52,822 nucleotides of DNA from an uncultured bacterium (GTDB lineage Bacteria; Patescibacteriota; Minisyncoccia; UBA6257; UBA9933). Made by a program: the position numbers and the translations under genes. Shown here piece by piece: positions 9,725 to 50,555 of the stretch. Where the stretch lies: positions 1 to 52,822 of the forward strand of contig CAJVXI010000003.1 in assembly GCA_913009635.1 (NCBI GenBank). Direction: 5' to 3'. The notes under the pieces were generated by a model. The model had not been told where the DNA came from. It did not search any database and saw nothing but the letters and a program-made list of their open reading frames with translations. Positions within the stretch are counted from its first letter, which is position 1, and the number at the start of each line of letters is the position of its first letter.

Positions 9725-9876
9725 CCGCCTTCGCTCCGCCGAAGCTCGCAAGAGCGAAGGCGAGCTTCGCCAGAGCTACGGCGTGACAAGTCCGTCTTCG
9801 CCACGCTTCAGCGTGGCTACGGCGTGACAAGTCCGTCTTCGCCACGCTGAAGCGTAGCTACGGCGTAACAAGTCCG
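9725..9876. repeat. REP-like palindromic cluster (CTTCGCC..GCTACGGCG units)
   Basis: Units at 9765-9794, 9795-9835, 9836-9876; the last two hold nested 12-bp hairpins in opposite orientation. Confidence 0.9.
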
Positions 9877-9878
9877 CT

Positions 9879-10014
9879 ATCAATACGCCGAAACTTTTAG
9901 TGAAGGCGATTAATCAATACGCCGAAACTTTTAGTGAAGGCGATTAATCAATACGCCGAAACTTTTAGTGAAGGCGATTAATCAATACGCCGAAACTTTT
10001 AGTGAAGGCGATTA
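9879..10014. repeat. Four perfect tandem copies of a 34-bp unit
   Basis: ATCAATACGCCGAAACTTTTAGTGAAGGCGATTA at 9879, 9913, 9947, 9981; no spacers. Confidence 0.97.
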
Positions 10015-10017
10015 AAT

Positions 10018-10251
10018 ATGTATTACGTTTACAGCTTACAATGCAAAGATGGCTATTATGTTGGATGTGCCAATGATTTAAAAGATAGAATTAATCGACA
10101 CAGAAAAGGACAAATTCCGGCTACAAAAAATAGATTGCCAATAAAATTAGATTTTTATTTTGCAACCAAAGACAAATACAAAGCATACGAATTTGAAAAA
10201 TACCTCAAATCAGGAAGTGGTAGAGCGTTTATTAAAAAACATTTAATATAA
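10018..10251 (+). CDS. Small GIY-YIG nuclease family protein
   Basis: YYVYSL..YYVG..DLKDRINRH..FEKYLKSGSGR. Confidence 0.9.
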   Translation: MYYVYSLQCKDGYYVGCANDLKDRINRHRKGQIPATKNRLPIKLDFYFATKDKYKAYEFEKYLKSGSGRAFIKKHLI

Positions 10252-10473
10252 AAGTTTTATTGAATGTGGTCCACCTATTCAAAAAATTTCGTTTATTAAG
10301 AAAAATAAGTTATAATCTAGAAATAAAAAATCTAAACCTATGATTAGAATTAAAATTGAAAAAATATTAAAAATTTAACATCAACAAATCAACAAAAATT
10401 AACCATATAAACCGTTATTTACAATTAAAAGGTCGAAAATTATTATAAATCCATACATTATAAATCCACACAA

Positions 10474-10842
10474 ATGATTAATAAAACATATCTTTGGCTT
10501 AGTATTATTGCGATTATCCTTATTGCCGGCGGAATTTATTGGTATTCTCAGCAAACATCAATAGACCAAGAATTAACGAATGAAGTAGAAACTCTTTCGG
10601 AAGATATTGCTGATATTGAAGAAATCAATCAAGATACAAGATTAAAAAATCTTGATGAAGATTTATCGGCAATTAGCGGAGAAGAACCAGGCGCGGTAAA
10701 TATAAATTCAATTATTAGCCTGGAAAGCGAACTAAACGATGAATTAGAAAGTTTTTCCGACGAATTATCGAATCTTGACGGATTTGACAGTGACGCGTCA
10801 TTAAATAATCTTGATAGCGATCTTTCCGGCGTTTCTCAATAA
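10474..10842 (+). CDS. Membrane-anchored acidic hypothetical protein
   Basis: N-terminal TM helix, D/E-rich helical body. Confidence 0.75.
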   Translation: MINKTYLWLSIIAIILIAGGIYWYSQQTSIDQELTNEVETLSEDIADIEEINQDTRLKNLDEDLSAISGEEPGAVNINSIISLESELNDELESFSDELSNLDGFDSDASLNNLDSDLSGVSQ

Positions 10843-10884
10843 TAACTTATACTTAATAATATAATTATTAATTTAATTTAAATT

Positions 10885-11751
10885 ATGAAACAACCAAATA
10901 AATTTATTATTTCTTTTACTGTCTGCGCTCTTTTAATGGGGCTTATGACCAATATTGGGTCAGCTCAAACATTAAGACAAAAAGACGCGACCGCAAAAGC
11001 AAAATATCAACAAGCCAAACAAACATACACGAAAGAAGTCAACTTTTATAAAAGCAGCCGTCAAAATCTTATTAATGCCAGAGCTAAATACAGACAATTT
11101 AAAAACGCAGAAAATAAAACCGCTCTTGAAGATACGGCAAGAGAATTTATTAAAACAACAATCTCTGTAATGATTAGTCGATTAGAAACAATTAGAACAA
11201 AAGCCGAACATATTCGCGGTATTTCTGAATCAGAAAGACAAACTATTTTAGCGGAAATTAACGAAGATATTAACTGGCTTAAAGAAAGACAGCCAAAAAT
11301 TGACAACGCGACGCCAACTCAAATAAAAGAAGAAGCTAAAATTATTAGAAGTTATTGGAAAAATATTAAAGTAAAAATCAAAAAAGAAACCGGTCAAATT
11401 TTAGCGGCCAGAATTACTTTTGTAATTACAAAAGCCGAAAACTTCTCTACGAAGATTGCTTCAAAAATTGATGAATTAAACGCCGCCGGGAAAGACACGT
11501 CTCAATTAGAAATTCTACTTGACGATTTTAACCAAAAAATTGATTTAGCTAAAACAAAATATGAAGCAGCCAAAGAAAAATTCGCCGCTATCTCCAATTT
11601 AGCCGAATCCGACCAATTATTCCGTCAAGGACACCAATTTATCAAAGAAGCGCACTCCTATATCAAAGAAGCGTATCAAAAACTTAGAGAAATTGTTAAG
11701 GAAATAAAAAGTGTTAATACGTCCGCTGATATTCAATCAGACACCGAATAG
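10885..11751 (+). CDS. Secreted coiled-coil hypothetical protein
   Basis: Signal peptide followed by long heptad helices. Confidence 0.75.
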   Translation: MKQPNKFIISFTVCALLMGLMTNIGSAQTLRQKDATAKAKYQQAKQTYTKEVNFYKSSRQNLINARAKYRQFKNAENKTALEDTAREFIKTTISVMISRLETIRTKAEHIRGISESERQTILAEINEDINWLKERQPKIDNATPTQIKEEAKIIRSYWKNIKVKIKKETGQILAARITFVITKAENFSTKIASKIDELNAAGKDTSQLEILLDDFNQKIDLAKTKYEAAKEKFAAISNLAESDQLFRQGHQFIKEAHSYIKEAYQKLREIVKEIKSVNTSADIQSDTE

Positions 11752-48254: not shown

Positions 48255-48308
48255 AGTAATGTAATGCTAATATACTAATTCATACTAATTATACTAATAA
48301 ATACTAAT

Positions 48309-48707
48309 TTATGTAAATTTATTTCTTGTATCCGTATCTATCCGAATTATTCTCATTGGCTTAATGTATTGAGATCTAAAGTTTATTAATAATCCAAGTT
48401 TAATATCTGCAATTTGTAAATAGCGTTGTATCTGGCAATAATCTTCGCGAGTAATAATTCTTTTAGTTTTTATCTCGATAATAATTTTATTGTCTATTAA
48501 AAAATCAACTATATTACCGGTATCGCCAAGAATAAACTCTCTTTTATAAGAAATTTTGATTTCTTTTAATTGTTTTTCTATTTTATCGGCATACTGTTTT
48601 TCGCGTGCATATCTTCCTATTTCATTATGAATATCAAAACAAATACCGGTAATAATATAAGAAAGTTCAGGGTAAATTAATTTATTATTTTTGTTATTCG
48701 TATTCAT
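48309..48707 (-). CDS. GxxExxY family protein (variant motif)
   Basis: [43 protein letters not shown] at 48707. Confidence 0.9.
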
Positions 48708-48744
48708 TAGTATCATTAGCACGCATTCGTATATTGGCATTGCG

Positions 48745-49275
48745 CTATCTATAATCAACGCGTTTGGCAATTTCCTTTTCTCCGGTAATTTTTCTAAAAA
48801 GCTGAAATTTTTCTTTGGGCTTTTTCCCCCAAAAAGGTGTTCTTATGGTTTTTTCTCTTTTTGGCACGGGATTTTTGGTGGTCAAAAGATTTTGCCATAG
48901 TTTTTTTATGTTCGGTGTTTCAGAAAAAAATTTTTCCAATTTTTCTCTTTTAGAAATAACAGCTTCTGTTGTTGGAATTTCAATAAATTTTTCTTCTACT
49001 TCTCTTTGCCAAAGATAAAGTCGTGGCCTCCAGATAAAGCCCATAGCCAGCCAGAGGATTTCAGGAAGTGGTTTTCCGTTGTATTTTATAAGAGCTAAAG
49101 CCAGCGCTATTATCGTTAAAAAAACCGAAATTAAAAACCATAACCACATTTGTATGATAAAAAAAAGCATAAAACTAATAAGTCCAGCACCGGCTAAATA
49201 TAAAAATTGCCTTAAGCTTAAAGGTCCAATAATTTTATTTTCAACATCAATAAATTGTGGGACTTGAAATTGCAT
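48745..49275 (-). CDS. PrgI family protein
   Basis: [24 protein letters not shown], 2 TM. Confidence 0.85.
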
Positions 49276-49332
49276 AAAATTAATTCAAAATGTAAATATC
49301 AAAAATCAAAATGACAAATTAAAATGTCAAAA

Positions 49333-49434
49333 TTATTTCTTGCTTTTTAAAGTTAAAATGCTAGAAGCTAAGATATTTGCTATTTCAATAAGTTCATCTA
49401 ATAACCATTTTAATTCTGATTGCTCTTTTGAATT
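49333..49434 (-). pseudogene. C-terminal remnant of a four-helix-bundle gene inside family C arms
   Basis: NSKEQSELKWLLDELIEIANILASSILTLKSKK*, no start codon. Confidence 0.65.
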
Positions 49435-49442
49435 TTACACTG

Positions 49443-50555
49443 TCATTTTGCATTTTGATTTTTGATTTTTGATTTTAATTCAAACGTTCTTAAATCAATA
49501 ACATCTTCCTCCTCTGACACGGACTCATGCTGACTGGACACGGACTTATACTGATTTTTTATTGGAAGATTTCCGGGTGGTTTAGATTGAGCACTTTGTT
49601 TAATTTCTGTGGATTGATGATTTTCTTCTTTTTTATCGGCTGGTCTGTATGAGTCTGTGTTAGGTCTGTATGGGTCAATGTTTTTGCCAAATGGTGAAGG
49701 CGTTTGCAGGCCGCCATAATGAACAACTCGTGGTTTGGGAATTTCAATTTTAGCGAGTTTTGGAGCTTCGGTAGGGGCTGTTTTAGGTATTTCTCTTGGA
49801 ATTTCTATTTTAGCTTTTGTTGCGGGTTTTATTCCTTGTTGTTTTTCTTTTTTAAGAAAGCCAAATAACCCGCTTAAAGAGCGTTGTTTAGTGTTGGTTA
49901 GTGGCGTGATTTTTTTCTCTTCGTGGATGATTTTCGGCATTAACACGGACTCATGCGGACTGGACACGGACTTTTGTGGACTTTCAACTTTTTCAATTTT
50001 CAGCGACTCCACTCCCGAAACTGTTTCTTTTGGAGGAATAATTTCTGGTTTATTTTTTTCTTGTTCTTCTTGTGATAAAATTTGTCTGTGTTTGTCAGTG
50101 TTCTGTCCGTGTATGTCCGCGCTTGCTTTCTGTTGTCTTAAGTCAACAATTTCCTTGCTATCCGTAGCTTTGGCGAAGGAGGGTTTTTCATCAATAGGCA
50201 TTTTTGCTGGAACAAATTCTTGTTCTAGTGGAGTATAATTTTTTTCTAAATCGTCTCTAATTGGCGTAAAAATTTTCCTATCAAATTCATCAGCGATATC
50301 ATTTGAGTTCTTATTATCTAAGTGCAGGTTTTCGCTAATTTCTTGGCTCATTTTATCAAGCGGCACAAAACCTAAAAGAACCAATCCGATTAATTGTTCA
50401 ATCATTAAGGTTTTCTCCTTTTTTAAGTAATGAGATTGACAGATTCGGCGAATGGTTTCGGCATTGTTTTCGGAAGTTAAAACATCCTTGATATTTTCAG
50501 GCAGAGAATTAAATCTTTTTTGAAATTGTTGTTCAGTTAGCAACGAGTAGTTCAT
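49443..50555 (-). CDS. Hypothetical protein with a disordered C-terminal half carrying several repeat insertions
   Basis: Helical N-terminal domain; PSFAKAT, DPYRPNTDSYR, KSVSS.HESV segments. Confidence 0.75.
   Translation of the reverse strand: MNYSLLTEQQFQKRFNSLPENIKDVLTSENNAETIRRICQSHYLKKEKTLMIEQLIGLVLLGFVPLDKMSQEISENLHLDNKNSNDIADEFDRKIFTPIRDDLEKNYTPLEQEFVPAKMPIDEKPSFAKATDSKEIVDLRQQKASADIHGQNTDKHRQILSQEEQEKNKPEIIPPKETVSGVESLKIEKVESPQKSVSSPHESVLMPKIIHEEKKITPLTNTKQRSLSGLFGFLKKEKQQGIKPATKAKIEIPREIPKTAPTEAPKLAKIEIPKPRVVHYGGLQTPSPFGKNIDPYRPNTDSYRPADKKEENHQSTEIKQSAQSKPPGNLPIKNQYKSVSSQHESVSEEEDVIDLRTFELKSKIKNQNAK

Follow-up and report, generated by a model that had tools for sequence, protein, structure and literature searches.

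The window analysed here is the entire contig C3 (52.8 kb; positions 1 to 52,822) of a 713-kb, 34% G+C genome of 26 contigs from an uncultured bacterium; its nearest homologues, going by NCBI names, are Parcubacteria/Patescibacteria. The genome is referred to as G000 (its contigs by C numbers), its congener as G001, and other relatives bear further G numbers. Small genes in the window, encoding one four-helix-bundle (4HB) protein and two GxxExxY proteins, are each enclosed by a pair of inverted repeats (arms), and the same arms recur in hairpins that hold no gene. The original prediction made from this DNA regarded such genes, together with two GIY-YIG genes, and the gene-less copies as short mobile cassettes, some autonomous and others not, with gene junctions as their targets. 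The core of that proposal was supported by the present analysis, whereas the membership of the GIY-YIG genes and the family specificity of the arms were not. Gene calls are simple open reading frame (ORF) calls throughout, and the 40 relatives compared are not independent samples.

Small genes enclosed by inverted repeats

The 4HB cassette (42351-42756, plus strand) consists of two CTAGTGG-type arms (42351-42370 and 42737-42756), the motif of repeat family FAM7, around an ORF at 42378-42734 that matches PF05635 (Pfam E 3.4e-39; PF05635/TIGR02436 scores of 133.8 and 125.2 bits). It lies between jag and a convergent gene (42746-43885), the stop codon of which falls within the right arm. The two GxxExxY cassettes are both on the minus strand. 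The first spans 465 nt (47148-47612), with FAM5 arms placed by BLAST clustering at 47119-47193 and 47572-47635 and an ORF at 47131-47580 (PF13366, E 1.2e-29); it fills the junction between the N half (47607-48254) and the C half (45399-47144) of VirB4. The second (48252-48758) has FAM4 arms at 48263-48308 and 48696-48741 and is located between PrgI (48745-49275) and the VirB4 N half; PF13366 was matched at 48309-48770 (E 2.9e-19), and the ORF is most likely 48309-48689.

Complementarity of the two flanks exceeded the top of 30 shuffles for each of these genes, reaching 35 versus 19 for the 4HB gene and 35 versus 25 and 52 versus 24 for the two GxxExxY genes. G000 as a whole encodes 12 4HB and six GxxExxY genes, three intact GIY-YIG genes and one GIY-YIG remnant. 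The flanks of 17 of the 18 4HB and GxxExxY genes were more complementary than all 30 shuffles, two of them only marginally, and all 12 4HB genes have terminal inverted repeats closing a stem around a unit of ∼0.4–0.5 kb. In the predicted fold of the whole cassette the arms form the closing stem, and none of 100 shuffles was as stable (fold z of −4.25 for the 4HB cassette and −3.43 for the GxxExxY cassette at 48250-48760). Every arm is built from a short motif iterated at 7–12 nt intervals. One 4HB domain outside the window (C11:5684-6001) is fused in frame to a downstream 170-residue hydrophobic segment, giving an open frame of 309 residues.

A gene remnant between arms, as the prediction had described, is found at 49265-49483 (minus strand), where FAM1 arms (49265-49351 and 49426-49483) enclose a decayed 4HB gene. 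Its C-terminal remnant (49336-49416, minus strand) aligns at 74% identity with the C-terminal end of the 4HB protein from a relative (E 5.8e-11), an N-terminal remnant is present too, and the relative G008 carries an intact homologue with FAM1-like arms. A further cassette, absent from the prediction, contains a small TrpR/YerC-like gene (18195-18548; whole unit 18029-18785, minus strand) between double palindromes at 18116-18160 and 18624-18668, and is inserted between the archease and RtcB genes.

The absence of a recognisable transposase or integrase from the window was confirmed: a Pfam search of 57 ORFs found no such family, an IstB-like match being the AAA domain of DnaA. The ORFs of the cassettes yielded only PF13366/TIGR04256 (GxxExxY) or PF05635/TIGR02436 (4HB) in Pfam and NCBIfam, and no recognised transposase.

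The GIY-YIG genes behaved differently from the prediction, which had placed those at 10018 and 31006 within recurring arms of their own. The intact gene at 10018-10251 (Pfam E 5.4e-13; plus strand, 9733-10251 with its repeats) has no inverted arms, its flanks scoring 18 versus 23 in shuffles; only tandem direct repeats with 41-nt and 34-nt units lie upstream of it (9733-10014), and it is therefore not counted in the hairpin system. The copy at 31006 is a pseudogene (30988-31281, minus strand) with an internal TAG, a broken frame and a match of 21 bits, under the cut-off. It sits within a 27-nt inverted repeat (39 versus 24 in shuffles), the start-side arm of which, the one arm tested, has no other copy in G000. 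None of the three intact GIY-YIG genes of G000 has inverted arms, and these genes are not members of the hairpin system. The other two intact genes (C19:11184-11644 and C5:24339-24892) each lie beside a tRNA gene, within a duplicated 0.4-kb block of 80% identity. Upstream of the gene at 10018, the window holds an Eco57I/MmeI-like restriction-modification methylase followed by six ORFs without convincing Pfam match (141-9563), five of them without any match and one with a weak, sub-threshold CRR7 match. Downstream of it, ORF 10885-11751 has no match in five relatives, and the sequence thus suggests that the region around these ORFs is a variable island.

Gene-less hairpins and the turnover of gene junctions

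A genome-wide, ungapped scan for inverted repeats, requiring arms of 24 nt or longer at no less than 78%, detected 90 in G000 and 2 in the block-shuffled genome. Clustering by self-BLAST gave families of 48 (FAM0), 25 (FAM1), 24 (FAM2), 17, 16 (FAM4), 16 (FAM5), 14 and 8 (FAM7) copies; FAM0 to FAM8 combined amount to 173 copies and 21.2 kb, or 3% of the genome. The gene-less hairpins are 60–200 nt long and number 8–48 copies a family. An origin of these repeats in faulty assembly or binning, or in chance matches between low-complexity stretches of an AT-rich genome, is hardly conceivable. Although many arms are AT-rich simple sequence and both ends of the contig carry an adapter-like inverted repeat, such an origin is contradicted by the shuffled control, by the presence of elements in frame within intact conserved ORFs, by the recurrence of the same architecture in the 40 related genomes and at 292 loci of public genomes, and by the finding of 75–95% of sampled words of the window in three DNA runs, all from a single study. 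The contig-end repeats themselves (30-155 and 52714-52791) comprise a 78-nt inverted repeat of 100% complementarity plus a 48-nt direct repeat; they look like sequencing-adapter remnants and belong to a family (FAM13) with further copies near the 3′ ends of C2 and C11.

The arms of the gene-bearing cassettes recur in gene-less form, as had been predicted. The arms of the FAM4 cassette at 48309 are ∼90% identical to those of a gene-less double (nested) FAM4 hairpin at 27494-27708, between a histidine kinase gene and a 5′-3′ exonuclease gene (fold z −5.9). The CTAGTGG motif of the 4HB cassette is found again at 14675-14701 (in a hairpin at 14595-14704, fold z −8.2), at 23394-23420 and at 26123, the last within a gene-less FAM7 hairpin (26057-26152) between pyrG and the histidine kinase gene. 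Gene-less FAM1 hairpins fill the rnpA-yidC spacer (41076-41215) and separate the 5′-3′ exonuclease gene from tsaE (28635-28761), a 77-nt hairpin of ATGAAT type fills the yebC-ruvC spacer (34379-34455), and FAM0 is represented by a gene-less element at 13539-13679 and by further window copies at 24267-24447 and 40604-40786.

Arms and gene are copied as one unit. Two of the three 4HB-bearing FAM0 members, C1:4162-4637 and C7:27521-27996 (the third is C5:28301-28777), are 95% identical across exactly 476 nt, a stretch bounded by the outer ends of the arms and including the 4HB gene. In gene-less FAM5 copies the beginning of the GxxExxY ORF survives, its start codon and first codons running straight into the 3′ arm, and the FAM1 remnant at 49265-49483 retains both ends of its 4HB gene; gene-less copies of this kind are therefore internal-deletion derivatives of gene-bearing ones. 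The hairpins themselves also spread, since the gene-less pair 27505-27702 and C1:61108-61305 (198 nt) is 100% identical at unrelated loci. [quoted passage not shown]

The fit of the hairpins to their junctions is open to another explanation, in which they serve the host as signals for intercistronic RNA processing, stability or termination, like repetitive extragenic palindromes (REPs) and bacterial interspersed mosaic elements (BIMEs), and the small genes home independently into their apices with the arms as targets. Hairpins nearly fill the spacers between stop and start codons, with a median of 4 nt between the stop codon and the stem and of 11 nt between the stem and the next start codon (27 hairpin-strand cases at 26 gene-less hairpins, without a control). 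The right end of FAM5 lies 2–9 nt before the ATG of an ORF of at least 60 residues in 11 of 12 elements, and its left end usually comes immediately after the upstream stop. A bias in orientation with respect to transcription is seen in FAM5 (10:0), FAM7 (4:0), FAM4 (8:2) and FAM1 (10:4), the FAM4 form of 200 nt resembles a unit placed within the apex of a second one, and gene-less mini-palindromes occupy sites that are filled in sister genomes. Hairpins are also present in G001 and G002, which have no GxxExxY gene. Against this explanation, FAM0 shows no orientation bias (10:11), arms and gene are duplicated jointly and the duplication stops sharply where the outer arms end, gene-less copies retain the cargo's first codons and so derive from gene-bearing copies and not the reverse, and the identical 198-nt copies indicate spread. 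Most members of the intergenic families have co-directional genes on either side, an arrangement that is also the most frequent among junctions in general. A supposed enrichment of stop codons in intergenic arms was dropped, because open-frame counts are near those of shuffles save in FAM7 (0.00 versus 0.80) and FAM6 (0.42 versus 1.05).

The original prediction had proposed to compare orthologous junctions for filled, empty and naive states. Filled, arms-only and naive states were found; the jag, VirB4 N/C and PrgI/VirB4N junctions are not invariant. The site after jag holds the cassette in G000, is naive in G001 and in G002 contains an 18-nt, arms-only mini-palindrome with the same motif. A 4HB protein 89% identical to that of the window, with the same arms, is present at another locus in another genus (G021), and G002 has a decayed copy of this cassette. 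The VirB4 N/C junction measures 465 nt in G000 with its GxxExxY cassette, 434 nt in G007 with a 4HB cassette and other arms, and 88, 131 and 141 nt in G001, G025 and G028, which hold bare hairpins; the other 25 of 30 loci measure at most 45 nt, some with arm-like scraps. VirB4 (45399-48254 in the window) is encoded as separate N (∼215 residues) and C (∼581 residues) genes in nearly all 40 relatives and as a fused frame (816 residues) only in G029. The split point is an insertion hot spot.

The PrgI/VirB4N junction, 490 nt by ORF coordinates in G000, was compared at 27 loci of relatives: 4HB cassettes are present in G021 and G008, a decayed 4HB gene in G002 and other hairpins in G025 and G038, and the remaining 22 loci measure at most 98 nt. 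The rnpA-yidC spacer is 118 nt in G000, 113 nt in G001 with a hairpin of another family and at most 50 nt at 21 of 23 loci, G002 having a 26-nt mini version. Between archease and RtcB, the site of the TrpR-like cassette in G000, there are 4 nt in G001, none in G028 and G029, 45 nt in G004 and 587 nt with other small ORFs in G015, while yebC and ruvC of G001 overlap (−10 nt) and leave no spacer. Over 17 kb of synteny between G000 and G001, at least 8 sites differ. Junction occupancy thus turns over between sister genomes, the VirB4 and PrgI junctions carry different cassettes in different genera, and most orthologous junctions in the relatives have no hairpin, which speaks against a conserved host function. 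We accordingly find it unlikely that the hairpins are host signals.

The original prediction assigned each protein family its own arms and proposed to test whether arms co-vary with protein clade. Of 40 4HB loci, 34 had arms exceeding all shuffles, and in these 34 loci arm 6-mers were common to 4 of 4 protein pairs at 80% identity or more, 3 of 12 at 60–80% and 2 of 545 below 60%. Co-variation thus holds for the closest pairs, and family specificity does not; sharing is confined to near protein relatives, and the arms are therefore inherited with the gene but evolve much faster than it.

The behaviour of the arms also bears on the source of mobility. Outside the window, G000 encodes two RAYT-like (REP-associated tyrosine transposase) Y1 transposases (PF01797; C8:30975-31776 and C15:2699-3564), each flanked by its own short perfect hairpins, and such an HUH enzyme, or another host enzyme, might mobilise REP/BIME-like hairpins in trans, with 4HB and GxxExxY genes as passengers. 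The absence of a catalytic motif from 4HB proteins would agree with this, and the strand bias of FAM5 and FAM4 would suit single-strand transposition. A single trans-acting enzyme would, however, be expected to keep the arm motifs constant, and they vary with the lineage of the cargo. Copy numbers across 26 genomes range widely, from 0 to 12 for 4HB and from 0 to 6 for GxxExxY, which is a further sign of mobility, and 10 of the 26 carry one or both genes without any Y1_Tnp match (G008 has 7 and 2). We judge mobilisation by a Y1 enzyme to be quite improbable, and prefer to regard the hairpins and their cargo as parts of the same selfish elements.

Several further features lie close to hairpins or palindromes. 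Three hairpin elements flank the region 36000-40200, in which the cumulative GC skew reverses near dnaN/dnaA (38804-40171); the skew suggests that the replication origin lies near these genes. An ssb-like gene (C8:11704-12471) has a FAM1 hairpin on either side. ORFs of ∼210 residues with flanking 37-nt palindromes centred on CGATCG were found at C6:25396-26149, C10:129-910 and C13:461-1135, the first and last being 80% identical over 676 nt. The sole reverse transcriptase of G000 (C16:7072-7686; PF00078, 86.6 bits) adjoins a pair of 130-nt repeats (C16:8283-8412 and 8727-8857) in the layout of a diversity-generating retroelement.

An in-frame palindrome family and a nested nuclease domain

One family departs from the intergenic placement and was absent from the original prediction. 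In FAM2, 18 of 24 copies are in frame within long ORFs, as against 3 of 46 in FAM0, 1 of 25 in FAM1 and none in FAM4 to FAM7. Hosts identified by Pfam or NCBIfam are GyrA (two copies), PheS, PheT, LeuRS, DnaX, a Wzy-like protein (two copies), RecG, LepA and YebC. The palindrome in yebC (34163-34252, plus strand) is in frame, adds 30 codons and is absent from YebC of G001. The ORF at 49443-50555, which has no Pfam family, contains two or three FAM2 copies with in-frame FAM2-type arms at 49517-49558, 49644-49676 and 49943-49984 (49517-49984, minus strand). An intergenic FAM2 copy lies at 13927-14010 (fold z −5.0).

Gene-bearing elements of the FAM2 type carry a whole GxxExxY domain, in frame and stop-free, within LepA (a 772-residue frame) and RecG (881 residues). 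In LepA the site is the β-hairpin before DTPGH; at the 28 loci resolved in relatives, four have arms plus nuclease, four have short inserts of other families and 20, including that of G001, are empty. A protein database contained 80 long proteins with the nested domain, by motif 40 RecG, 31 LepA and nine others, among these RtcB, glycosyltransferases and an O-antigen-ligase-like protein. The RtcB case is protein P0134 from another Patescibacteria genome (PF01139 plus PF13366, 463 residues). Scanning one genome per species revealed 292 nested loci, of which 80 were kept; 77 of these were analysable (38 LepA, 29 RecG and 10 other hosts). The insertion point is identical among LepA copies and among RecG copies, and at one RecG locus (L167) the nuclease occupies the site where RecG of G000 holds a gene-less copy.

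Seven residues (E, Y, D, E, K, Q and Y) do not vary among 57 family members or among 29 LepA-nested copies, the invariant core of GxxExxY comprising E33, Y36, D72, E82 and K84. The AlphaFold model of free GxxExxY (predicted local distance difference test score, pLDDT, 87) has as its fold neighbours, by Foldseek and structural alignment, only PD-(D/E)XK proteins, namely restriction enzymes, Cas4, Hjc and tRNA splicing endonuclease; the predicted structure thus confirmed the PD-(D/E)XK fold of GxxExxY. A sequence search of the PDB with GxxExxY gave nothing at E ≤1. When LepA residues 1–345 were modelled, the G domain and the nuclease domain were both predicted confidently, and the arm peptides and the gene-less insert scored below 50.

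The arms of the nested family contain an iteron, summarised as an 8-mer every 10–12 nt and given here as the motif CRCRGAM. It occurs 2.25 times per upstream arm (at least twice in 51 of 77 loci) and, as the reverse complement, 1.92 times per downstream arm (at least twice in 43 of 77), whereas the opposite orientation gives 0.01 and the background is 0.09. The spacing is 10 nt in 55 cases, 11 nt in 15 and 12 nt in 19. Most spacings are thus not a multiple of three, which argues that the nucleic acid is constrained here and not the peptide. Mean complementarity was 27.2 between a locus's own arms, 19.6 with arms of other loci and 13.9 for shuffles.

Arms that are complementary and phased even within coding sequence might mean that host proteins are made without the insert, either because a hairpin 'intron' is cut from the RNA by a PD-(D/E)XK endoribonuclease and the ends are rejoined by RtcB and archease, or because the ribosome bypasses or shunts across the stem. 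The window encodes both RtcB and archease, the fold neighbours of GxxExxY include tRNA splicing endonucleases (Z 6.1–6.8, tied with many others), and at junctions the stem has the stop codon at one foot and the start codon at the other. A maintained reading frame would be unnecessary for splicing or bypass, whereas the coding-region copies examined, both the 18 FAM2 copies in long ORFs and the 77 nested loci, where the frames bearing the motif continue into the host protein, are all in frame and stop-free. Archease was found in only 11 of 41 genomes although nested elements occur phylum-wide, no Rfam intron family was found at the LepA locus, and in the predicted model the nuclease and G domains both fold confidently in one chain. 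Such removal or skipping is, in our assessment, very improbable, and the in-frame copies are better accommodated as members of the selfish class that would be translated with their hosts.

Relation to known elements and possible mode of propagation

The closest likeness of the 4HB cassettes is to the IVSs of 23S rRNA. One described 23S rRNA IVS measures 428 nt, with a 28-bp stem and an S23p (PF05635) ORF, and is removed by RNase III; according to the same source, such IVSs in Leptospira, Coxiella and Salmonella are sporadic, with an ORF prone to decay, and the suspicion that they are mobile is of long standing (PMC4990558). The cassettes share with them the PF05635/TIGR02436 ORF, the terminal inverted repeats closing a stem and the unit size of ∼0.4–0.5 kb. 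They differ in location, as 23S rRNA IVSs sit in helix 25 or 45 and the cassettes lie between or inside protein genes, and also in the many copies per genome, the gene-less derivatives and the alternative GxxExxY nuclease cargo. No rRNA was found by Rfam in the window or in five other cassette-carrying contigs, and none of the hairpins matched any Rfam family. ORFs named 23S_rRNA_IVP have been noted in rRNA insertions of the candidate phyla radiation (10.1101/2024.02.27.582315). Our literature search found no description of a palindromic GxxExxY/4HB cassette system in Patescibacteria.

The gene-less hairpins resemble MITEs in their terminal inverted repeats, length below 300 nt, tens of copies and internal deletion from a gene-bearing parent. 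Unlike MITEs, the parent here has no recognised transposase (DDE, HUH or serine/tyrosine recombinase), and the arms are iterated and form one long hairpin. With REP/BIME-RAYT systems they have in common extragenic palindromes at gene junctions, an enzyme gene amid its own repeats and the RAYT-like genes of G000; they are distinguished by longer arms, by the lack of Y1_Tnp from every cassette of the window and by the occurrence of cassettes in genomes without a Y1_Tnp match. FAM2 is similar to Rickettsia palindromic elements, which are described as short palindromes that lie in frame in many unrelated, often essential, genes and are translated along with them (PMC10969869). This likeness is one of behaviour, in-frame palindromes, and the FAM2 arm family is also found with an intact nuclease in its loop, at fixed LepA and RecG sites phylum-wide. 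We know of no report of a gene-bearing Rickettsia palindromic element.

The nested nuclease shares with homing endonucleases an ORF in frame with an essential host gene, recurrent occupation of the same site and a sporadic distribution. Homing enzymes of the PD-(D/E)XK fold are known, and the catalytic domain of one, I-Bth0305I, is a weak structural neighbour of GxxExxY (Z 5.4). In contrast to inteins and group I introns, the insert appears to be retained in the protein, and iterated palindromic arms flank the nuclease. Splice residues of Hint type are absent from the flanks of 52 nested copies, which have a variable start followed by Tyr, Phe or Val (LepA) or Pro-His (RecG). The Pfam lists of the 80 nested proteins appear to contain only host domains and PF13366, and no Hint domain. 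Rfam at the gathering score found only tRNAs, and no intron ribozyme, on the LepA contig. Judged from its sequence context, the nested nuclease behaves like a homing element without intein or intron.

A scheme that would accommodate these observations begins with a complete element of 0.4–0.5 kb, in which two inverted arms of 20–100 nt, with a motif iterated every 7–12 nt, form a hairpin around one gene. The cargo is either a GxxExxY PD-(D/E)XK nuclease or an Avd-like 4HB protein, and the layout of the TrpR-like helix-turn-helix gene is similar. Avd is a 4HB homologue that acts as an accessory protein of retroelements; the 4HB protein of the window scored 31 bits against the Avd family of NCBIfam, under the cut-off. 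The elements probably move as DNA, and internal deletion of the gene gives rise to the MITE-like hairpins. Because the spacing of the arm motif is about one helical turn, its orientation is strict and it persists in coding sequence, the constraint appears to act on nucleic acid, and the iterated motif may be a protein-binding array. Mobility or targeting may be provided by the cargo protein itself: cleavage of the target or of the hairpin would fall to the nuclease, the element would be copied by host repair, as in homing, and gene-less copies would be served in trans. The stem may mask the start codon of the cargo in read-through RNA, and in-frame copies would be translated through, yielding disordered linkers and a folded nuclease domain.

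Several observations weigh against a single class of selfish elements mobilised by their own cargo. FAM0, at 48 copies the largest of the gene-less families, goes with 4HB cargo even though 4HB proteins lack a catalytic motif, so that a role as transposase is excluded for at least part of the cargo. G001 and G002 show that hairpins persist in the absence of the GxxExxY nuclease. The structural matches of GxxExxY all lie below Z 8, are tied and point only to generic PD-(D/E)XK enzymes, and no specific enzyme class can be named for this reason. No target-site duplication could be defined from FAM4 flank alignments or from filled and empty pairs, the ends being AT-rich and repetitive. The fast divergence of the arms is a further difficulty, as their global correlation with protein distance is nil (Spearman −0.06, reached by 1668 of 2000 permutations). 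At the nested loci a locus's own arm was the best partner in only 13 of 77 cases, and the LepA occupancy of 4 in 28 fits vertical descent with loss as well as it fits homing. Finally, the excess of open frames in FAM2 over shuffles is modest (1.74 versus 1.03 of 6), so that in-frame residence may reflect a survivor filter and not design.

A wider generalisation can be offered only tentatively and is, in our view, possible rather than probable. GxxExxY and free-standing 4HB proteins, two very widespread families without assigned function, would be mainly the cargo of one ancient class of palindromic elements, of which rRNA IVSs would be a special case; the nested form would represent homing without intein or intron, guided by arm iterons one helical turn apart and retained in the host protein as a nuclease domain on disordered linkers, and at junctions the stem would keep stop-start coupling by shunt-like re-initiation.

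The elements described here would give two large orphan families, TIGR02436 and TIGR04256, a testable role and would tie the rRNA intervening sequences, a 30-year-old puzzle, to a general class of mobile elements. The tolerance of ∼170 selfish hairpins by an ultra-small, gene-dense genome may be explained by their exact fit in stop-start spacers or protein loops. The nested nuclease domain is now annotated as part of LepA or RecG, or the entire protein is mislabelled 'GxxExxY protein'. In Patescibacteria genomes at large, such elements would inflate or disrupt gene calls, divide ORFs and serve as markers of recombination hot spots.

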